Origin: an uncultured bacterium
GTDB taxonomy: Bacteria; Oederibacteriota; Muellerivitia; Muellerivitales; Muellerivitaceae
Direction: 5' to 3'
Length of the DNA: 38,713 nucleotides
Assembly: GCA_964531065.1 (NCBI GenBank)
Contig: CAZHFP010000004.1
Location: 1 to 38,713 of the forward strand
A program made the translations under genes and the position numbers. This document shows positions 1 to 9,562 of this stretch, one piece after another. The number at the start of each line of letters is the position of its first letter. Position 1 is the stretch's first letter. A model generated the notes under the pieces. The model did no database searches and was not told the origin of the DNA. It saw only the letters and a list, made by a program, of their open reading frames with translations.

Positions 1-649
1 CGGCGCTTTGGATCATCCGCCGGGCTTCCGGCGAATCTTTTCCCGAACAAAAATCTTTTTCACGTACGCCGAATTTTTTCAACTCATGCCGGGGATAATA
101 GAGGCGGCCTCTTTTGATATCCATGGAGGTGTCTTGCCAAAAGTTAATGAGCTGGAGGCCTGAGCAAATAAAATCCGAGTAGCGGTGGAGTTTTTCCTCC
201 CGGTAGCCATGAATGAGCAGAACCATTCGGCCGACGGGATTGGCGCTGTGGCGGCAGTAGTCAAGAAGGGAATTCCAGGTGGAGTAGCGGTGTTGGGAAA
301 GATCCATTCGAAAAGCCCTTAATAGGGCCAGAGGTAGGTCCGGCGGTATTTTAAAAATTTTAACGGTGTGAGCGAAAGCCTGAAGGGCTGCCGGGGATTT
401 TTTGCCGCCGAGAGCCGCTTTAAATCCTCTTTCCCACCGGTTGATTTCCAGGAGCCTTCGCCCTTCAAATCGATCCTCATCGGCGAAGTCATCGGCGGTC
501 CTGGCGAAAGCATACAAAGCGGCTACATGGGGCCGAACCTCGGCGGAAAGAAGCAGGGATGCCACCGGGAAATTTTCGTAATGCCCGAACGCCAATTTTT
601 GGCATTGACCGTAGGCCTGCTTTAAGTGGGAAGGAATGAGAGAATCCAT
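1..649 (-). CDS. hpnC: Squalene synthase, HpnC type (squalene/phytoene synthase family); 3' end cut by the window edge
   Basis: Absent from the ORF track because it has no stop in the window. My minus-strand translation from the ATG at 649-647 reads MDSLIPSHLKQAYGQCQKLAFGHYENFPVASLLLSAEVRPHVAALYAFARTADDFADE...LDYCRHSANPVGRMVLLIHG...INFWQDTSMDIKRGRLYYP. The HYENFPVAS and ARTADDxADE signatures are typical of HpnC. Confidence 0.8.
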   Translation of the reverse strand, partial: MDSLIPSHLKQAYGQCQKLAFGHYENFPVASLLLSAEVRPHVAALYAFARTADDFADEDRFEGRRLLEINRWERGFKAALGGKKSPAALQAFAHTVKIFKIPPDLPLALLRAFRMDLSQHRYSTWNSLLDYCRHSANPVGRMVLLIHGYREEKLHRYSDFICSGLQLINFWQDTSMDIKRGRLYYPRHELKKFGVREKDFCSGKDSPEARRMIQSA

Positions 650-903
650 GGCATCAGGATAAGGGGAGAGGGGCGTTGAGATAAATACCTATTTATTGTT
701 GAAGGTGCTTTGCGGTTTCTCAAGGGATTTATCCGTTTGAATTCTTCCAGGCGGTTATTTTCGGCGTCCACGACCGTCAACATTTCCCGCCGAGTCCACA
801 GCTGGGTCGGTGGATCCGTTGCATTGGCCATCCGGGGCGCCTCGTTCACCCTATGGACCCCGAAATTCCAAGTCCTTTTGGAAAAATAAATTTCACCGTC
901 CAT
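622..903 (-). CDS. Hypothetical 93-aa protein; overlaps the hpnC start by 28 nt
   Basis: The only support is an ATG-initiated ORF in an otherwise ORF-free spacer. I recognise no motif. It could be spurious. Confidence 0.25.
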   Translation of the reverse strand: MDGEIYFSKRTWNFGVHRVNEAPRMANATDPPTQLWTRREMLTVVDAENNRLEEFKRINPLRNRKAPSTINRYLSQRPSPLILMPWILSFLPT

Positions 904-1015
904 AAAATCATTATTTCAACCAAAAAACAACAAATTAAACGCGCTCCCAAATTTTAAAAGAACCAAATTTTATTCATGAAGGTGTAAACTTCTCTCAGTT
1001 TACCTTTCCTTCGGA

Positions 1016-2113
1016 TTGGATCACAGGAATTTTTATTACATGACCTTCAATAAAAATTTTTTCCTAGGAGCTTTCCTTTCTTTTGTCTTGTTGGTTCTGG
1101 GAGCCGAGGTCCTACTCCGTGCGACCGTTCCGGCCGGTTTTTGGTACAGGCATTTCGATTTTTCAGGAGACATGACTAGTTTGGCGGAGCTGCGGGACCG
1201 GATCCAATCGATTCATCCCCCCGAAGGGTTGGATTTGTTATTGGGGGACAGTGTTTTGGGTGCCAGTGCCTTGATGGAACACAGGGTCCCCGAAGCGCGA
1301 AACAAAACCCTGTCTCGGCTATTGGCCGATTTATTGAAATCACCTAACCACGTTTCGATGAGTTTAGGCTCAGATGGGTTTTTACTTCCGGATATAGAGG
1401 GAGTAACGGCTGAAATTTTAAAACATCCTCCCGCCAGAATTCTCCTGCTTCTCAATTTTAGGATGTTCGCTAAAAATTTCGACGAAGGTCCCAACGCCCT
1501 TTCGCGGAATTTTCTTTTGGGAAACTTACCTTTGGAAATTCAAAAAAAACTAGCGCCCGCAACCCCTCCGACGGAAGAATCCCAACTGAGTGATCGGCTT
1601 TACGCCGCGATGTGCGACCATTGGTTTCTTTTCCGCGAAGCGCAGATGGCCAAGACGCTTTGGTATTACCCCAGTCAAAAGGATTTTTTTCAAAGGCGTT
1701 TGGAACAAATCATGGGCCAAAACGAAGATCAAGAGGAAATGGCGGAAGCGGCGCTAAAGTTAAAAACCGCCGATTATTACCAGGCATATCTGTGGGATAA
1801 AGACGGTCTTCCTTTCCAGTGCCTGAAACAATGCCTTCAACAATGGAACCAAATGCACATACCCGTGGTGGTAGTGTTGACCCCTCAGAACAAAAAATTT
1901 TTAGGAAAGGCCTTGGACAAGCCCAGTTTTGAAAAAAACAAAAGAGCCCTGGCGTCCTTTATGAAACTCTATGCCGTCAGGGGCATACGCTATCAAGATT
2001 GGTCCAACCGTTATCCTTCTTCTTTTTTTCTGGACCATTGCCATCTAAATTTTGAAGGAAACCAGCATTACGCCGGAGATTTAGCGGAAGTTTTAAAAGG
2101 GGTCGCTCCATGA
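1016..2113 (+). CDS. Membrane-anchored SGNH/DltD-like protein, the putative periplasmic partner of the adjacent MBOAT
   Basis: It has an N-terminal TM helix (FFLGAFLSFVLLVLGAEVLL), a GDS block (LLLGDSVLGA) and a C-terminal DxxH block (FLDHCHLNFEGN). Its stop overlaps the next ORF (ATGA at 2110-2113). The ORF-track start at 1016 is TTG; the ATG at 1040 (MTFNKNFF) is an alternative start. Confidence 0.6.
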   Translation: MDHRNFYYMTFNKNFFLGAFLSFVLLVLGAEVLLRATVPAGFWYRHFDFSGDMTSLAELRDRIQSIHPPEGLDLLLGDSVLGASALMEHRVPEARNKTLSRLLADLLKSPNHVSMSLGSDGFLLPDIEGVTAEILKHPPARILLLLNFRMFAKNFDEGPNALSRNFLLGNLPLEIQKKLAPATPPTEESQLSDRLYAAMCDHWFLFREAQMAKTLWYYPSQKDFFQRRLEQIMGQNEDQEEMAEAALKLKTADYYQAYLWDKDGLPFQCLKQCLQQWNQMHIPVVVVLTPQNKKFLGKALDKPSFEKNKRALASFMKLYAVRGIRYQDWSNRYPSSFFLDHCHLNFEGNQHYAGDLAEVLKGVAP

Positions 2114-2232
2114 AGAATCATGACTTCTGGAAAGGGATCGGGTGGGGGGCGGTTTTATTCGTGCTTTTCCTGGCGATCCTTCTTTTTTCAGGCGACCTAT
2201 CCGCCTCTAAATTCATTTATGTGGATTTTTAA
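2110..2232 (+). CDS. Unannotated 40-aa single-TM miniprotein with a DltX-like C-terminal motif (KFIYVDF)
   Basis: Below the ORF-track size cutoff. My translation is MKNHDFWKGIGWGAVLFVLFLAILLFSGDLSASKFIYVDF*. The ATG overlaps the upstream stop (ATGA), and its TAA is immediately followed by the MBOAT ATG (TAAATG). It has one hydrophobic helix followed by an F-I-Y-x-[DE]-F tail. Confidence 0.55.
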   Translation: MKNHDFWKGIGWGAVLFVLFLAILLFSGDLSASKFIYVDF

Positions 2233-3438
2233 ATGATTTTCAACACCAGTTGGTTCCTGATTTTTTTCCTACTCTTTTATTTTTTCCTTTGGTTTGTGCC
2301 GAACCCCCGTTTGAGGTTTTTTTACCTGTTGGCCTGCAGCGCCATTTTTCATTACCACTTCGCCGGGCCCGCGGGAGTCACCCCGATTATTTTTATGGCG
2401 GTCCTTACTTTCTTTTGGGCGAAGTGGATCGTGAAATTTCCCGAAGGGAGCTCGGAAAAAAAATGGGTATTGGGGGGAGCCCTACTTGTTCCTGTAACGG
2501 GCCTTCTTTTTTATAAGTATCAAGCCCTTGTGTTTGGTTCGTTAGGAGCCGCCCTGGGGGATCGGGCGGGCGGATGGTTCACGGCCCACGCGCTTCAGCG
2601 GGCCATGCCGCTGGCGATTTCTTTTTTTACCTTTGAGTTTGTTCATTACCTGACTGATATTTATTATGGGAAGGGTGAACCCGTAAGGAATCCTTTCAAA
2701 TTCGCCATTTTTTGTATTTTCTTTCCGTCCATTGTTTCGGGACCGATCAAGCGGTTTCAACCCTTTTTGGCCCAACTGGAAGACGGGCTCCAGCGGCCGC
2801 CCGTCCAAAAGGCCTTGCTGGGATTGGCCCAGCTGTTGCTTGGATTTTTTAAGAAGCTAGTCATCGCGGATAACGCCACCATCCTCATCCACCTTTTAGA
2901 AAAGAGGACCAATTTGAGCACGGGTCCATGCTGCCTGTTGATGGCGCTGCTATCGATCCGCATCCTTTTCGACTTTAGCGGTTACAGCGATATTGCCATC
3001 GGATTGGGCAAGATGATCGGATTGGATCTGCCGGCTAATTTTAATTTCCCCTATATCGCCGAGAACATCACGGATTTTTGGAGGCGCTGGCACATGTCCT
3101 TGAGCAGCTGGATCCGGGATTATATTTACATACCGATGGGGGGAAATCGGTTTGGGTTGTTTCGAAAATTTTTCAATTTGATGGTCACCATGTTTGTTTG
3201 CGGCCTGTGGCACGGCGCCAGCTGGCATTTTGGAATTTGGGGTCTTTACCATGGGCTGGGCTTGGCCTCGCACAATGCTTGGGAAAAATCGAGATGGGGG
3301 CAAATGGGAAAGACCTTTCCCGGGGCCCGTTGGATCCGCGTGGGGGCCACCAACGTTTTCGTGGCCTATGGATGGCTTTTGTTTTTTTATCCCATGGACC
3401 AGGTGGTTAAAATCACCCGTCATCTTTTTTCTTTATAA
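2233..3438 (+). CDS. MBOAT-family membrane O-acyltransferase (AlgI/DltB/PatA-like)
   Basis: The protein is polytopic and hydrophobic. It carries FWRRWHMSLSSWIRDYIYIPMGGNR and CGLWHGASW, the conserved MBOAT His-containing motifs. Confidence 0.85.
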   Translation: MIFNTSWFLIFFLLFYFFLWFVPNPRLRFFYLLACSAIFHYHFAGPAGVTPIIFMAVLTFFWAKWIVKFPEGSSEKKWVLGGALLVPVTGLLFYKYQALVFGSLGAALGDRAGGWFTAHALQRAMPLAISFFTFEFVHYLTDIYYGKGEPVRNPFKFAIFCIFFPSIVSGPIKRFQPFLAQLEDGLQRPPVQKALLGLAQLLLGFFKKLVIADNATILIHLLEKRTNLSTGPCCLLMALLSIRILFDFSGYSDIAIGLGKMIGLDLPANFNFPYIAENITDFWRRWHMSLSSWIRDYIYIPMGGNRFGLFRKFFNLMVTMFVCGLWHGASWHFGIWGLYHGLGLASHNAWEKSRWGQMGKTFPGARWIRVGATNVFVAYGWLLFFYPMDQVVKITRHLFSL

Positions 3439-3451
3439 CCAGCCTTCGGAA

Positions 3452-5464
3452 TCAATGGGCGCCTTTAACGGGATCCTTATTTTCCAATCCTAAAGGGATG
3501 AGTTTCTCTTTCATGAGTTCTTGGGCCACGAGCAATGAAAAATAAATATGCCCGTTATGGTTGAAGTGATGGTTCCCTCCCGGCTCGGTAATGGGGAAAT
3601 AATTTAACCGGGTCGCGGTCATTTTGTCGGTTAAATCATGGAAGGGGATGCTCGCCGCCTGGCAGGATTCCCTCCAAAAATGACGATAGGTCTCCATGGG
3701 CAGGAGGGGGTTGCCAATCCTGTTTCCGGTTGGAAAATAGATGACGGCAAAGTCAACAGGCTTTCCCGCGGTGGTTTTCATTTGTTTTATTTTTTCGGCA
3801 AGAAGCCTCAGTGGTTTTTGTGTTATGGCCAGAAGATACTCGCGCAGCTTCGGGTCAGAAGTCATTTGGATGAAGCCCGCGAAATCTTCTTTCCCGGAAG
3901 TCACATATTTGAGATCCACGCAGCGTTGGTAAAAATCGGATAAAACCTTATCGTTGTCGATTTTCAGTCTTTCCGATATGGTTTTTTGGGTGAATTCCGC
4001 GCCATCCTGGAGGACGTCCGCTACTCCTTCCTTGTTGTAAGGTCTTTCAAAGCATCCGTTCATCTCAAAATCATTGGTGAGAAACAGCAAGACTAAATCG
4101 ACGTCAAATTTTTGGATGAGAGGCGGGTCGATGAAATAAGGCCACAAAAAAAGAGGGCTGTAGCGGTAATTATCGACGTTTAACACTTCATAATGATTTT
4201 CCGCATCGTTGAGGGAAGCCCAGGTATTGAGGAATAATTCAAGACGTTTGGGAATCATTTCCATCCGGTTAAATCCCCATGGCCAGCGTTTTTCCTGATC
4301 CCTTTCCTGCTCCTGCTGATAAAAGAGCCGGGAATCTCCCGATAACATTATTCGGAAAGCCTGAGGAGGTTTAGAAACGGGATAGGAAAAATCGAAAAGA
4401 CCGTTATCGTTAACCCGTTCTGAATTTTTATAAGCCTCAAACTCATAATCCTTAAGGCTTATAACGCAGTTCAATGTGGGGAGGCCGAAATAAAAACTTC
4501 CTTTTTGGAGAGGGTCGGCGAGGAAACCGACCGTGGGTGTGGAGGCATCAAAATGCAGAAGGTCTTCCAGTATAGAACTGCCCTTTTCCAGCAAATCACC
4601 CCAGGGTGACATGAGGGTGACCGGACCGGGATTCGGGGTGATTCTTACCCAAGGCCAATCCGCCGATTGCAAAGCGTAAAGGGTGTCCCCCGAGGAAGTC
4701 ATCGAGATGATCTTATTTCCCCTTCCCATTTCTTTGTAAGAAGCCGATGGGTTTCCGGCGGCTGTTCCGGATACGGGATCGACCTCATAGACGGAAGGCA
4801 GGTTCAAATCGGAGGCGTAAAGCTTGCCTTGGTGAAGGCATAGCGCCGCGGGATTAGGAAGTTCGGCCGAGATGGGGAAAGTTTTAATGGTTCCGGAGGA
4901 TAGGTCCAATTTTTTTAAAACTTGAAGCTGAGGCTGGGTGAAATAAACGGCATTTTCATTGGAGGCAAACGCCATTCCAAAGACATGTTCCAAAAGTCCA
5001 TGACCCTTTGAGTCAACCGAACTAGGGACGGTGGATACTTTCATGGATTTTAAGTCCAGCAGTCGGAAAAGTTTGTTGTCGGAATCATAAACCAGCAAGC
5101 GTTCTTCGGGAATAAAGAGGATCAAAGTTGGGTGATTGAAAGCCGCGGACTTAAAATCCCCATCCCGGTATCCCGCCTTGCCATCGCCGGCCAGCGTTTC
5201 GACCTTATTTTGATCCGCTAGATCTACGACCCGGATACAATGATTTTCGCTGTCGGCCACAAATAAGCGGGTATCTTTCGCGTCCAAGGCCAAGCCTGTT
5301 GGTTTGTTGAATAACGCTGAATAAAACTCGCCGTTCTTTAAACCCAAATCTCCTTCTCCGGCCACGAGGCTGATGTATCCCCACATGGGGGAAAGGGAAA
5401 AGGCTCGGGAAGAGGCCATCCAACCGATTACGGCGTAAAAGAGAATTTTTAAAATGAATCGCAT
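3452..5464 (-). CDS. Secreted NHL-repeat (beta-propeller) protein with a C-terminal SGNH/DltD-like domain, paralog A
   Basis: It has a signal peptide (MRFILKILFYAVIGWMASSRAFS) and NHL-type repeats (FNKPTGLALDAKDTRLFVADSENHCIRVVDL; FNHPTLILFIPEERLLVYDSDNKLFRLLDL). The C-terminal part has FRIMLSGDS and GGNHHFNHNGH. It aligns along its whole length with 6330-8339. Confidence 0.6.
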   Translation of the reverse strand: MRFILKILFYAVIGWMASSRAFSLSPMWGYISLVAGEGDLGLKNGEFYSALFNKPTGLALDAKDTRLFVADSENHCIRVVDLADQNKVETLAGDGKAGYRDGDFKSAAFNHPTLILFIPEERLLVYDSDNKLFRLLDLKSMKVSTVPSSVDSKGHGLLEHVFGMAFASNENAVYFTQPQLQVLKKLDLSSGTIKTFPISAELPNPAALCLHQGKLYASDLNLPSVYEVDPVSGTAAGNPSASYKEMGRGNKIISMTSSGDTLYALQSADWPWVRITPNPGPVTLMSPWGDLLEKGSSILEDLLHFDASTPTVGFLADPLQKGSFYFGLPTLNCVISLKDYEFEAYKNSERVNDNGLFDFSYPVSKPPQAFRIMLSGDSRLFYQQEQERDQEKRWPWGFNRMEMIPKRLELFLNTWASLNDAENHYEVLNVDNYRYSPLFLWPYFIDPPLIQKFDVDLVLLFLTNDFEMNGCFERPYNKEGVADVLQDGAEFTQKTISERLKIDNDKVLSDFYQRCVDLKYVTSGKEDFAGFIQMTSDPKLREYLLAITQKPLRLLAEKIKQMKTTAGKPVDFAVIYFPTGNRIGNPLLPMETYRHFWRESCQAASIPFHDLTDKMTATRLNYFPITEPGGNHHFNHNGHIYFSLLVAQELMKEKLIPLGLENKDPVKGAH

Positions 5465-5844
5465 GTTTGCCTGACCGCCTATGGATTTAATCCTACCGGG
5501 CTCTGCCGAAGGGTTTTTATACTTTTTTTTTATTATCCCGGTTCAACGTAATTATGGACGGTTTTGATTTCATTTCTTTCCGAAAAAAGCGTGAAAAAGA
5601 GGATTTTTTTCTAATTTTAACGATTTTCATGGAAAAAGGGACGAAAAGGACCGGTCCGAGAGCCGATGCAGCGGGAAATTTTCCAGAAGATGGCCGTCCT
5701 TTTGATGGCAATCACTATGGTTTGGTGGGAAAATTCTTCCGCTAAGCCGCCAGCGGCTAAAATCACACGGCTATTACCTGCAATGAGTTGCAACTTCCGA
5801 AAGATTATTTCGTCTAAATATTACAATGGTTTCAAGGAGACTTT

Positions 5845-6330
5845 ATGAAATGGATTTTGCTCTTTTTACTAGCGATAAACGCCGGGTCTTTGGGGGCGCA
5901 GGAGGCGGTCCCTTCTCCCACTCAAGTCCTGAAGCTAATGAGCCCATGGGACGGGGCTAAGGCGCCATGGGACGAGTGGTTTAAGAAAAACACGACGGCC
6001 ACGGACAAGACCGATTATGTCTATATATTTTGGGACGCGAATGATTTTAAGGGGAATTTTGAGGTGAAGGACAAAAAAAGACGGTTGGCGGAGGCCGCTC
6101 TTCAAATGGTCAAACGTCTTTATCCTTCCGATGCCACAGCCGATCTCGTGAAGCTGGATATTGGTTATATTTTAGAAAAAGATTCTTATGGTTTGCCGAA
6201 ATGGGACAGTTTGCAAAAGGTGGCGCATTTGGAATTTTTGAAATCAAAGATCCTAAAACAAGGAAAATCCCCGGTCAAATTATCGGAAGCCGTGATAAAA
6301 AAAATGTTTGATAAATTTGAGATTTATTAA
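5845..6330 (+). CDS. Secreted hypothetical protein (161 aa)
   Basis: It has a signal peptide (MKWILLFLLAINAGSLGAQE). Its stop overlaps the start of the next gene (TAATG at 6328-6332), which suggests co-translation with paralog B. I recognise no family. Confidence 0.5.
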   Translation: MKWILLFLLAINAGSLGAQEAVPSPTQVLKLMSPWDGAKAPWDEWFKKNTTATDKTDYVYIFWDANDFKGNFEVKDKKRRLAEAALQMVKRLYPSDATADLVKLDIGYILEKDSYGLPKWDSLQKVAHLEFLKSKILKQGKSPVKLSEAVIKKMFDKFEIY

Positions 6331-8339
6331 TGGGATTTTTTTTGAAGGCGCTCATTGTTTTAAGTCTTTTATTAAGCGGAGCTGGACCAGCCGGCGCCCT
6401 GGGGCCCATGTACAGTTACCATGATTTGGTGGCGGGCGAGGGGACCGCGGGAATGGAAAACGGTTTTTTTTATTCCGCCCTGTTTCATACTCCCTTAGGG
6501 ATGACCGTGGATCCGGTATCCAACCAGCTTTTCGTCGCTGATTCGGATAATCACTGCCTGAGAGTGATTGATCTTTCGGAACAAAATAAAGTGTCGACTC
6601 TGGTGGGCACCGGAAAGGCCGGTGGTACGGATGGATCTTTCGCTGTAGCGGCCTTTAACAAGCCGTCAGCGCTGGTTCTGTTACCCCGCCGGCGGATCGT
6701 TGTTTATGACAGTGGAAACGCCCGGCTGCGCCTGGTGGATTTGGATAAAAAATCGGTCGCTACATTGGCTGGAACGGGTGAAAGTGGCTCTCTGGATGGA
6801 AACGGAATAAAAGCCCAGGTGGGTCCTATTTGGAACATGGCGTACTTAGAGTCCCAGGATGCCCTTTATTTTTCCGAGCCTGAATCGGGCACGTTGAGAA
6901 AAATGGATATGAAGACTTTGGAAGTTTCCACTTTGTTGAGACATGACCCGCAAATTCCAAATCCGGCCGCCCTTTGCGTTAAGGCGGATAAGCTTTACGC
7001 GGCAGACCGAAATTTGCCGCAGGTTTACGAGCTTTTACCGGATACCAACCGACTCCTCCAAGCCCTGGCCCCGGCGATGACTCCCGCGGCCACCCCCGTT
7101 TATTTCACGAAAAATCTTGTCGCGAACGCGGAAAAAGTAATGGCCATGGCCTGGACAGGAAACTCCCTTTACGCCCTGGAAGCGAATCCCAACACACCTG
7201 TGGCTTGTTTGGCTCCGGCCCATTCGGTTGATTTTATTTCAACCTGGGGCGAACTCCTCAAAAATCCCGGACAAATGGCTTTCTTTAATGATGTCCAGAG
7301 CAATCTGCCGCTCGCATTGGTCCCGGACCCTTCTTCCGAACGTAAATTTTTCCTAAGCCATCCAGTCGAAAATATGATCACCTCGTTTCGGGACCTTTCC
7401 TTCCTCGAAGGGGTGAAAAACGAATCCTATAATTCTAACGGGTTGATGGATTTTGAGTATCCTTTGAAAAAACCAACGAATGTATTTCGGATTCTTTTGA
7501 CCGGTGATTCCCATATTTTTCACAATACTCACGGCGATGTAAACGCGGAAAATCGAATGGAACTGCCGGCGAAACGGCTTGAATTGGCATTAAATACAGC
7601 CGCGGCTATGGAAGATGCCCCGATGCGGTTTGAGGTTTTGACCCAGGCCCTGAATTCCCATGAGCCTTTGAATATTTGGACCTATTATCTGACTCCCGAT
7701 ATAGTTAAGAAGTACGACGTGGATTTGGTGCTAATGATGCAGACTTCAATCAACTATGGGGGAGGTGTTTTTACTTACTTTGAAAGGCCTTTGACCGCCG
7801 ATGAAATTCCAGCACAAAAGCTGGATCCGGAATATTTATTAAAACCTTGGACCGAAAAGGTGAAAAAAGGCTTACCGAAAGAATTATACGACCTTTGTTT
7901 GAAAAAAAAATTGGTTGAAGTGTCTTCTCAACAGCAACTTCTGTTCAAGACATTCGATGAAATGGATCAAGACCCTGAAGTTCTCGCCCTCTTGGCGAAA
8001 ATGTACTCCCGGCCCATCCAGATGTTGAAAGGAAAAATTACTTCCGTGAAAACCAGCAGCGGCGCGCCTGTTCAGTTTGCGCCCTGCTTGGTTCCCCTCC
8101 CCGCGCTTTATCCTTTCCGCCATCAACGGCCTTTTTGGAACAAGGTAAAGGATGAATTGGGTCCTCCGTTTTTGGACATGGAGGCCCCGATGACATCGTT
8201 AAGAGTCGGTTTTTTCCCCTTTACCGTCATGGACGGTTACGATCATTTCAACAGCGACGGCAATCTTTTGGTGGCTTTCATGCTCGCTTATGAATTGATT
8301 CATGACAAAATGATCCCCTTTGATTCGGTAAAAAAATAG
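6330..8339 (+). CDS. Secreted NHL-repeat (beta-propeller) protein with a C-terminal SGNH/DltD-like domain, paralog B
   Basis: It has a signal peptide (LLLSGAGPAGA) and NHL-type repeats (FHTPLGMTVDPVSNQLFVADSDNHCLRVIDL; FNKPSALVLLPRRRIVVYDSGNARLRLVDL). The C-terminal part has FRILLTGDS and DGYDHFNSDGN. Confidence 0.6.
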   Translation: MGFFLKALIVLSLLLSGAGPAGALGPMYSYHDLVAGEGTAGMENGFFYSALFHTPLGMTVDPVSNQLFVADSDNHCLRVIDLSEQNKVSTLVGTGKAGGTDGSFAVAAFNKPSALVLLPRRRIVVYDSGNARLRLVDLDKKSVATLAGTGESGSLDGNGIKAQVGPIWNMAYLESQDALYFSEPESGTLRKMDMKTLEVSTLLRHDPQIPNPAALCVKADKLYAADRNLPQVYELLPDTNRLLQALAPAMTPAATPVYFTKNLVANAEKVMAMAWTGNSLYALEANPNTPVACLAPAHSVDFISTWGELLKNPGQMAFFNDVQSNLPLALVPDPSSERKFFLSHPVENMITSFRDLSFLEGVKNESYNSNGLMDFEYPLKKPTNVFRILLTGDSHIFHNTHGDVNAENRMELPAKRLELALNTAAAMEDAPMRFEVLTQALNSHEPLNIWTYYLTPDIVKKYDVDLVLMMQTSINYGGGVFTYFERPLTADEIPAQKLDPEYLLKPWTEKVKKGLPKELYDLCLKKKLVEVSSQQQLLFKTFDEMDQDPEVLALLAKMYSRPIQMLKGKITSVKTSSGAPVQFAPCLVPLPALYPFRHQRPFWNKVKDELGPPFLDMEAPMTSLRVGFFPFTVMDGYDHFNSDGNLLVAFMLAYELIHDKMIPFDSVKK

Positions 8340-8761
8340 GGTTTCTCGAGGACTCCGCGAAAGGGTTTAAAGGTTTGCTTTCAACGGTCTTTATTTTGGG
8401 GGCCCATCCCTTAGGGGATTCGATGCGGGTTTTAAATTGAATAAACAACCATTGAATCAGGGGTTTCCCCCCGAATCATTCCGAAGCTTCCACCTAGGAA
8501 GGGAATCCCGTTGTTGGAAGAAGCATTTGCTTATCCGCTGGCTCTTGTTGTAACGATGGAGAATTAAGATCGGTGGCAGGTCATATCAAAATAAGCTTTT
8601 AGGCTTATTTTTTTGTTTCTTGAATCAGGTTCTTTTTCCGAATAAACTACAACTCTTTCCGGGTCCCTATCGGACGTTTACCCGTCAGGGCTGGGCCCCT
8701 AAAGGTCAAACACCAAGTCTGTTTTTTGATCAAGCCTCCGGCTTGATGGCTTATGGATCTC

Positions 8762-8838
8762 GGACGTTTAGCTCAGCTGGTTAGAGCGTCGCGTTCACAT
8801 CGCGAAGGTCACTGGTTCAAGTCCAGTAACGTCCACCA
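8762..8838 (+). tRNA. tRNA-Val, anticodon CAC, with encoded CCA
   Basis: I folded a complete cloverleaf by hand. Acceptor stem GGACGTT/AACGTCC; D arm GCTC-AGCTGGTTA-GAGC; anticodon arm TCGCG-TTCACAT-CGCGA; variable loop AGGTC; T arm ACTGG-TTCAAGT-CCAGT; discriminator A followed by CCA. Confidence 0.95.
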
Positions 8839-8872
8839 TTTAAAACCCCCAAACCTTTGCTATAATTTTCCC

Positions 8873-9562
8873 ATGTGCTCTCGATTTGTCCTTAAAAGCC
8901 CCCCGAAGGCTATCGCCGACCTATTTCACTTGGAGAAGGCCGTCGATTGGAAGCCCCGCTACAACGTGGCGCCCTCCCAGAAAATCCCCGCCGTGCTTCG
9001 AACCCTTGAGAACAAGAAACGCCGGATTAAACTTTTACAATGGGGATTCGTGGCTTCCTGGACCCAGGGAGGGCGTTTGATCGTGAATGTCCGCAGCGAG
9101 GAGATTGGTGAAAAACCCCTCTTTCAGGAGTCCTTCGAAAAATGGCGCTGCCTGATACCGGTGGACGGTTTCTACGAATGGCGTCATGAGGCGAAAGAAA
9201 CCAGGCCTTACTTCATCCAAATGAAGAACCGGCAGCCTTTCGCTTTGGCGGGGATTTGGGCTTCCCAAAAAGTGGAAGGGGAAACAATTGAATCCTGCGG
9301 CCTATTAACCACCACTCCCAACGACGTAATCCGGGCGGTGCATGACCGGATGCCGGTGATTGTGGATCCGAAGGATTATGGGACTTGGCTGGATTCGGAG
9401 GACATCCGAGATTTCAAGGCGCTCCATAAACTTTTCAATCCCTATCCCGCTGAAAAGATGGAGGCCTACCAGGTGGGGGCTTGGGTCAACAACGTCTCTC
9501 ATGACGACGAACAATGCGTTGAAGCTTCCCACGAACCTGAAACCCTATCCTTTAATTTTTAA
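8873..9562 (+). CDS. SOS-response-associated peptidase (SRAP/YedK family, abasic-site DNA-protein crosslinking)
   Basis: It begins MCSRFVLKS (catalytic Cys2), followed by YNVAPSQ and a PVDGFYEW-type core. The ORF-track extension at 8753-8872 is read-through of the tRNA gene. Confidence 0.8.
   Translation: MCSRFVLKSPPKAIADLFHLEKAVDWKPRYNVAPSQKIPAVLRTLENKKRRIKLLQWGFVASWTQGGRLIVNVRSEEIGEKPLFQESFEKWRCLIPVDGFYEWRHEAKETRPYFIQMKNRQPFALAGIWASQKVEGETIESCGLLTTTPNDVIRAVHDRMPVIVDPKDYGTWLDSEDIRDFKALHKLFNPYPAEKMEAYQVGAWVNNVSHDDEQCVEASHEPETLSFNF

Follow-up and report, generated by a model that had tools for sequence, protein, structure and literature searches.

The acyl-tyrosine (acyl-Tyr) shuttle is a mechanism reportedly set out by Schultz et al. 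in 2023. In DltX, the microprotein of the DltXABCD system of D-alanylation (Dlt) in Bacillota, and in PatA, a membrane-bound O-acyltransferase (MBOAT), a C-terminal hexapeptide has been shown experimentally to be the acyl-Tyr carrier (PMC12148441, PMC13653941), and Anderson, Schultz et al. defined this 'acyl shuttle' motif as FXYXXF (PMC12148441). The DltX of L. plantarum ends in NQAKFIYNEF, of which 45-FIYNEF-49 is the critical motif (PMC13653941), and that of B. thuringiensis, MERLKEIWSRPLTQWVAKTVYYLAILFALLWLYGFHDTNTSTFIYNEF, ends in TSTFIYNEF (PMC5541007); the consensus F-I-Y-N-E-F given in the original prediction for the locus studied here agrees with both published tails. In PatA the enzyme itself acetylates the Tyr of the motif at its C-terminus (peptide FIYANF in N. 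gonorrhoeae), and non-Dlt MBOAT–SGNH pathways are said to lack a DltX-like microprotein (PMC12148441). Here we analyse a small open reading frame (ORF) at positions 2110–2232 of the plus strand of a 38,713-nt stretch of DNA from an uncultured bacterium (contig CAZHFP010000004.1; the whole 38.7-kb stretch is hereafter called the window), located between the genes of an SGNH-like protein and an MBOAT. Its 40-aa product is most likely a trans-acting Tyr acyl-shuttle microprotein, which does the job of DltX in a non-Dlt MBOAT–SGNH pathway acylating an extracytoplasmic polymer.

The ORF, designated X as a DltX analogue, encodes MKNHDFWKGIGWGAVLFVLFLAILLFSGDLSASKFIYVDF. Its start codon, ATG 2110–2112, lies within the ATGA at 2110–2113, where TGA 2111–2113 is the stop of the upstream ORF 1016–2113, and its 40 sense codons are followed by the stop TAA 2230–2232 and, directly after it, by the ATG of the MBOAT gene at 2233. 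The translation and coordinates given in the original prediction, together with the upstream overlap and the abutting downstream start, were reproduced exactly. A Shine–Dalgarno-like AAAGGGG is found at 2096–2102, 7 nt 5' of the ATG. As read from its sequence, the protein consists of a short N-terminus (residues 1–8, with K2 and K8), a hydrophobic helix of about 20 residues (~9–28), and a 12-residue tail (29–40), DLSASKFIYVDF. The last six codons, 35–40 (2212–2229, plus strand), encode the hexapeptide F-I-Y-V-D-F, which conforms to FxYxxF, and the proposed acyl acceptor is Tyr37 (codon TAT, 2218–2220). Across all six reading frames of the window, F.Y..F-stop has a single occurrence, in this ORF. 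The positions of K2 and K8, as well as the likeness to DltX, suggest that the N-terminus faces inwards and the C-terminus outwards.

In this layout, that of a single-pass membrane microprotein of about 40–50 aa with a C-terminal tail, X resembles DltX: the two are similar in size (40 aa against ~48 aa), each has a short N-terminus, one transmembrane helix and an extracytoplasmic tail of 12–15 residues, and both end in K/T-F-I-Y-x-[DE]-F, with the invariant Tyr four residues from the C-terminus (FIYVDF-stop in the window). The gene also adjoins, as in the Dlt system, the genes of a short MBOAT devoid of the motif and of a membrane-anchored SGNH protein with the DltD fold. The differences lie in the surroundings. 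The gene order is SGNH–X–MBOAT rather than X–A–B–C–D, the locus is not a dlt operon, since neither dltA (D-Ala ligase) nor dltC (carrier protein) was found in the window or in the 80 related loci described below, and DltB orthology does not apply to the MBOAT. Instead of D-Ala-DltC, an acyl-CoA probably serves as the acyl donor. Uncultured bacteria of other phyla are the hosts (FCPU426, Acidobacteriota, Verrucomicrobiota, Planctomycetota and others), most of which are not regarded as Gram-positive.

Conservation of the microprotein gene

With an alignment of 20 MBOAT homologues, loci with homologous short MBOATs were collected from contigs representing one genome per species, yielding 80 loci (915 kb, ±6 kb around the gene). 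The source metagenome-assembled genomes bear labels of FCPU426, Firestonebacteria, Goldiibacteriota, Acidobacteriota (Thermoanaerobaculia, Holophagales), Verrucomicrobiota (Opitutaceae), Planctomycetota (Gemmataceae), Cyanobacteria/Obscuribacterales, Bacteriovoracaceae, Chloroflexota and Gammaproteobacteria, about 10 phyla in all. A six-frame scan of these loci for F.Y..F-stop returned 78 matches, every one of them on the strand of the MBOAT; 75 of them are one-helix miniORFs, and the remaining three are the C-termini of long MBOATs (483–519 aa) in loci L008, L035 and L039. The miniORFs are distributed over 74 of the 80 loci, with two copies in L032, and the conserved miniORF anticipated beside homologous MBOATs is therefore present across about 10 phyla.

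Two types of the microprotein could be distinguished, type 1, which includes the window protein and has the consensus ...LLFSGDLSxSKF[IL]YVDF, and type 2, with ...HYxLYRxxLPxxPFIYV[AS]F. The mean entropy at codon positions 1, 2 and 3 is 0.86, 0.45 and 1.47 bits in type 1 (n = 33) and 1.09, 0.68 and 1.50 bits in type 2 (n = 42); in the last 12 codons the corresponding values are 0.20, 0.10 and 1.30 bits for type 1 and 0.64, 0.46 and 1.36 bits for type 2. The ratio of nonsynonymous to synonymous substitution rates (dN/dS) is 0.235 in frame versus 0.97 and 2.28 in the two shifted frames for type 1, and 0.387 versus 0.92 and 1.83 for type 2 in the same sets of sequences, while the antisense frames are mostly broken by stops. 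The annotated frame is the one under purifying selection, and the gene is real.

An alignment of 121 microproteins showed that G13, F35, Y37 and F40 are invariant and that L24, L30, I36 and V38 are conserved in at least 90% of the sequences. A search with the microprotein profile against 1.84 billion cluster representatives revealed 122 clusters (50% identity) at E ≤ 1e-3, nearly all of whose members are 34–98 aa long, are matched at the C-terminus, and end in F[IV]YxxF; the tails among 119 further cluster representatives include FIYVAF, FIYVDF, FIYVSF, FIYAAF and FVYVAF. No true DltX (FIYNEF) was present among the 122 clusters matched by this profile. The gene had been supposed to be too short for gene callers, which proved incorrect: gene callers predict precisely this 40-aa protein on 5 public contigs, and hundreds of relatives have been deposited (NCBI, JGI, ENA) as 'hypothetical protein', with no functional annotation. 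Some type-2 proteins (P0313, P0314, P0323) are named 'xanthosine utilization system XapX-like protein' or 'F0F1-type ATP synthase assembly protein I' at JGI; these names probably reflect chance matches of a single transmembrane helix (TIGR03510 at 14 bits).

Two other readings of the same nucleotides were considered. Stop-codon readthrough from the microprotein into the MBOAT, which share a frame with TAA alone between them, was rejected, as relatives have anything from 0 to 68 nt between the two genes. A 32-aa antisense ORF within the microprotein gene (2118–2216, minus strand) recurs in 8 relatives and is regarded as a by-product of constraint on the sense strand, because the antisense frames show dN/dS ≥ 1 or contain stops.

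The neighbouring MBOAT and SGNH proteins

The downstream gene (2233–3438, plus strand) encodes a 401-aa MBOAT acyltransferase (PF03062, 1.8e-26) without a motif-bearing C-terminal extension. The conserved catalytic His of MBOAT–SGNH systems is present: the WHG histidine, His327 (codon 3211–3213), is invariant among the aligned homologues and aligns to the WHG of DltB. Against the DltB equivalog TIGR04091 the protein scores 181 bits (positions 19–376 of 380), below the cut-off of 375, and long non-Dlt MBOATs fall in an equal range, 152–189 bits. The window MBOAT is therefore not a DltB orthologue, and has only the short architecture in common with DltB, its match to the model being attributable to the fold shared by bacterial MBOATs in general. 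In an AlphaFold2 (AF2) model (pLDDT 81) the best structural match is DltB, with 6bug (template modelling score, TM-score, 0.71) and 8jem at TM-scores of 0.69–0.72.

The upstream gene (1040–2113, plus strand) encodes a 357-aa membrane-anchored DltD-like SGNH protein with an N-terminal transmembrane helix; ATG 1040 is its most likely start, as called in homologues, and the mechanical ORF begins at TTG 1016. It contains block I ('LLLGDSVLG') and block V ('DHCH', D-x-x-H), and its homologues share G69, D70 and S71 without exception, with conservation of at least 90% at D332 and H335. No match was obtained in local Pfam, NCBIfam or PDB sequence searches, so that by sequence it does not qualify as DltD, although homologues carry the Pfam family PF27429 ('LB_356'), which is newer than the local Pfam copy. 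When the AF2 model, built from an alignment of 45 sequences (pLDDT 92.2, pTM 0.90), was compared with the PDB, DltD structures (6pfx, 6o93, 3bma and 7dxm) took all of the first 12 places, at E values between 1e-6 and 2e-4; the likeness is at fold level only, with TM-scores of 0.43–0.48 and 13–15% identity, and generic GDSL/SGNH esterases follow DltD in the list. Conservation and fold together indicate an SGNH partner with the Ser and Asp-x-x-His expected in an MBOAT–SGNH system. At fold level, the three adjacent genes are DltD-like, DltX-like and DltB-like.

The third element of such a system is an FxYxxF motif from either the MBOAT C-terminus or a microprotein; in the window it is the miniORF that provides this motif, in trans. 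With its C-terminus reading ...RHLFSL, the short MBOAT has no FxYxxF motif, and of its 120 closest homologues only one, the truncated 314-aa fragment P0050, ends in such a pattern (FTYHLF), by coincidence and not as part of a motif-bearing extension. Long MBOATs (L008, L035, L039 and L081) align to residues 1–350/384 of the short MBOAT and then continue for 100–160 extra residues, ending in FLYFRF or FIYFQF/FIYFRF. The last of these, L081, is a Bacillus PatA-like long MBOAT ending in NPFIYFRF; a tblastn search of plasmids with the MBOAT retrieved only generic or PatA-like long MBOATs, which were used as a control for the fused motif. The microprotein itself aligns with the last helix and tail of the long MBOAT of L008, WRPNILWGCLLAVLFLATLLMVTGN-SEFLYFRF. 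Long MBOATs with the fused motif also occur within loci of short ones: a long MBOAT of 519 aa (29–1588) shares locus L008 with the short one, and in L035 and L039 a long MBOAT of 483 aa (4540–5991) lies directly upstream of the short one.

A close parallel outside Dlt is offered by PatA/PatB (peptidoglycan O-acetylation), AlgI and other long MBOAT–SGNH pairs, which likewise combine a conserved-His MBOAT with an SGNH partner; they also share the C-terminal FxYxxF hexapeptide (FIYANF in NgPatA), the lack of a carrier protein, and a glycan-modification context. They differ in that their MBOAT is prolonged at the C-terminus by about 100 residues, forming two helices, which bear the motif, whereas in the window system this extension is absent, and the last helix and the motif constitute a separate gene. 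Alginate O-acetylation by AlgI–AlgJ–AlgF–AlgX combines an MBOAT and a membrane-anchored SGNH-like protein with two secreted partners, one a small accessory protein and the other SGNH-like with an extra substrate-binding domain. A similar set is found in the window, namely the MBOAT, the DltD-like protein, a 161-aa protein, and an NHL and SGNH-like protein; however, the motif is part of AlgI itself, no genes for alginate synthesis lie close to the type-1 cassette, and Pfam searches found no sequence-family match to AlgJ, AlgF or AlgX among the cassette proteins. In OatA-type AT3–SGNH proteins an acyl-Tyr intermediate is also handed to the SGNH serine (PMC12148441), but these enzymes are single polypeptides with an AT3 membrane domain, unrelated to MBOAT, and the C-terminal hexapeptide is missing.

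Proposed function and alternative explanations

By analogy with the experimentally established mechanisms of DltX and PatA, the following scheme could be proposed. The microprotein would insert as a single helix, N-terminus in and C-terminus out, between the short MBOAT and the membrane-anchored DltD-like protein, and would contribute in trans what long MBOATs possess in cis, namely the last helix and the hexapeptide. His327 of the MBOAT would transfer an acyl group from a cytoplasmic thioester donor, most likely acetyl-CoA, since no carrier protein or adenylating enzyme is present, to Tyr37 of the tail reaching into the outer funnel of the MBOAT. The acyl-Tyr tail would then swing to the SGNH active site (Ser of 'GDS', Asp and His of 'DHCH'), giving an acyl-Ser intermediate, and the SGNH enzyme would esterify a cell-envelope glycan, alone or together with the 161-aa and NHL/SGNH-like proteins.

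The reality of the gene, the invariance of its motif, the complementarity of short MBOATs and microproteins, the folds of the partners, and the lack of DltA and DltC at the loci support an acyl-shuttle role. The core of the original prediction, a DltX-type shuttle encoded between an SGNH-like gene and an MBOAT gene, is supported by the conservation of the ORF, the invariant FxYxxF and the DltD- and DltB-like folds of the partners.

Several observations weigh against this assignment. Likeness to known systems is the basis on which Tyr37 is proposed to be acylated and the microprotein to touch the MBOAT or the SGNH protein. A stand-alone microprotein was not found within ±6 kb in 6 of the 80 loci; two of these are on contigs ending ~0.5–1.1 kb past the MBOAT, and in a third, L035, the short MBOAT adjoins the long motif-bearing one, and may rely on this neighbour or be served differently. 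The scans for DltA and DltC covered the window and the loci, and the genes could be located elsewhere in the genome. At the level of sequence families, the window microprotein has no match to the Pfam family of DltX, PF12459, even at E ≤ 10, and does not reach the gathering score of 25 bits, compared with 75.7 bits for the B. thuringiensis DltX used as a positive control. Alignment of the microprotein profile with the single B. thuringiensis DltX sequence by hhalign covered only the last 16 columns, LFS-GDLSASKFIYVDF with LYGFHDTNTSTFIYNEF, at a probability of 8%, and a PDB sequence search with the microprotein returned no DltX chain, only a chance match to MurJ. Kinship to the DltX family, which the original prediction suggested could be recognised with a profile, is weakly indicated by relatives of the window protein, 25 of 121 of which match PF12459 at E ≤ 1, below the threshold (best E 4.9e-5; a type-1 relative of the L025 type scores 18.7 bits, E 1.2e-3, under the 25 bits required), but not by the window protein itself. 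Taken together, the microprotein is DltX-like by all structural and contextual criteria tried, yet lies outside the DltX sequence family as now defined.

A role of the microprotein as a structural or assembly subunit, acting as transmembrane 'glue' for the MBOAT and the SGNH protein or as a stabiliser of the MBOAT, with Tyr37 not an acyl carrier, is the strongest of the competing explanations, although we consider it unlikely. DltX also acts as a scaffold that holds DltB and DltD together (PMC12148441), and G13 and L24 of the transmembrane helix are conserved too. However, conservation is strongest not in the helix but in the extracytoplasmic tail, where the last 12 codons of type 1 have the lowest entropies at positions 1 and 2 (0.20 and 0.10 bits); the invariant F, Y and F are precisely the residues of the catalytic hexapeptide and are placed at the extreme C-terminus; and the short MBOATs have no other copy of the motif.

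Still less probable is a true Dlt pathway, in which divergent DltX, DltB and DltD proteins would D-alanylate their substrate using a DltA ligase and a DltC carrier encoded elsewhere in the genome. The best structural matches of the partners are indeed DltD and DltB, and the combination of a short MBOAT with a separate microprotein is the Dlt architecture. Nevertheless, scans for the adenylation A3 (AMP-binding) motif and the phosphopantetheine attachment motif detected nothing credible in the window or in the 80 loci, and Pfam analysis of the other large genes of the window found housekeeping functions only (SRAP, PTPS, NadE, lipoate ligase, Lpd, RF3, glycine cleavage, ABC and TRAP transporters, and NAPRTase) and no AMP-binding or PP-binding domain, in agreement with the original prediction that the locus lacks DltA and DltC; in known systems dltA and dltC are members of the operon. 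The MBOAT, with 181 bits against a cut-off of 375, shows no special affinity to DltB compared with long non-Dlt MBOATs, and the type-2 modules that were inspected are located in polysaccharide gene clusters. Moreover, most of the phyla concerned are not known to make teichoic acids.

Finally, the suggestion that the ORF is non-functional, being either a chance intergenic ORF or a leader coupling or regulating MBOAT translation, for which its very short length and tight packing between overlapping or abutting stop and start codons could speak, is effectively refuted by the comparative data, since the peptide sequence itself is kept across phyla (dN/dS 0.235 in type 1), is retained while its position relative to the MBOAT varies, and is found by its profile in 122 clusters at 50% identity.

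With the acyl-shuttle function as the preferred reading, the place of the window system among those already described can be outlined. The shuttle has so far been described (Schultz 2023; Anderson 2025) either as the Dlt microprotein or, elsewhere, as a part fused to the MBOAT, and the loci analysed here add a third class, spread over about 10 phyla at loci without Dlt genes. Literature searches, the coverage of which did not extend to the full text of Schultz et al. 2023, yielded nothing on stand-alone shuttle microproteins outside Dlt. What appears to be new is a broad family of such microproteins accompanying short MBOATs and DltD-fold transferases. The acyl-Tyr chemistry and the microprotein shuttle in Dlt were already known, and the finding is hence an extension and correction for specialists rather than a new principle; likewise, the operation of a Tyr shuttle in a non-Dlt MBOAT system, put forward in the original prediction, probably holds for this locus but is not in itself novel, being known in PatA. 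A function can be proposed for at least 122 clusters of 'hypothetical' proteins of 35–70 aa, a few of them mis-named XapX-like, and a simple annotation rule follows for such operons and for hundreds of these microproteins. The natural split and fused pairs could be used for studying the docking of the shuttle, and the distribution of the family points to acylated envelope polymers in little-studied phyla, among them FCPU426, Acidobacteriota, Verrucomicrobiota and Planctomycetota.

Gene order and other members of the cassette

The type-1 set is arranged in the order SGNH–X–MBOAT in 32 loci, whereas in L025–L029 the order is MBOAT–gene–SGNH–X. The position of X relative to the MBOAT thus varies, X being upstream, directly downstream, or one gene downstream, while according to a rough count it usually lies directly 3' of the SGNH gene, with overlapping stop and start codons, on either side of the MBOAT. 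In L032 (6001–9883) one short MBOAT is followed by two tandem SGNH–X pairs (FIYVAF), in each of which the start of X overlaps the SGNH stop. This arrangement suggests that X has its functional partner in the SGNH transferase, much as DltX binds DltD, and that the shuttle is matched one-to-one with the transferase rather than with the MBOAT. Apparent fusions of SGNH proteins and microproteins, seen as long stop-free ORFs in GC-rich loci, were rejected, as they represent two genes in different frames.

In type-1 loci the set is usually followed by a gene for a 161-aa protein, found in the window at 5845–6330 (plus strand) and in 23 of the 80 loci as a member of the cassette; it has an apparent signal peptide, belongs to no Pfam family, and may be an accessory subunit comparable to AlgF. 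One or more NHL/SGNH-like proteins of ~670 aa are also usually present. One of the two in the window, 669 aa long (6330–8339, plus strand), starts with a hydrophobic segment interpreted as a signal peptide, contains NHL repeats recognised by Pfam and carries, in the C-terminal half, the SGNH-like blocks 'LLTGDSHIF' and 'DGYDHF'; it adjoins the MBOAT in 21 loci and, judging by these motifs, is a candidate terminal transferase or polymer-binding partner. A paralogue with 36% identity is encoded on the minus strand at 3452–5464, as indicated by synteny, Pfam and motifs.

Type-2 loci contain a protein of ~400 aa either between the MBOAT and X or just after X. Comparison of the DltD-like profile with these partners by hhalign gave only faint matches to block V or the N-terminus, and their putative SGNH nature is based on GGSS/AGNS and D-x-x-H motifs and an N-terminal transmembrane helix. 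In L040 and L068, the two type-2 modules inspected, the genes are surrounded by those of glycosyltransferases, a Bac_transf priming transferase, a DegT aminotransferase and ManC, that is, by polysaccharide clusters.

The coupling of SGNH and X genes, the single MBOAT of L032 with its tandem pairs, and the additional NHL/SGNH proteins of the cassette allow one to speculate that the split shuttle is a widespread modular design in which a common MBOAT is joined by anchored SGNH transferases, each accompanied by a microprotein of its own, Dlt being a specialised offshoot of an older pan-bacterial split family that possibly handles non-acetyl acyl groups. We regard this generalisation as doubtful; if true, one MBOAT could feed several transferases or polymers.

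Other features of the window

Rfam and promoter/terminator scans around the locus found nothing relevant. At the beginning of the window (1–1015), a minus-strand squalene/phytoene synthase (SQS_PSY) gene, recognised on public contigs with the same locus, runs off the window end. A conserved minus-strand ORF of 93 aa at 622–903, with no family match, is also called on public contigs. A tRNA-Val(CAC) gene is located at 8762–8838, and the mechanical ORF 8753–9562 starts by reading through it. The Pfam SRAP domain of this ORF begins at residue 41, and the SRAP (SOS-response peptidase) gene probably starts from an internal Met-Cys at ~8873.

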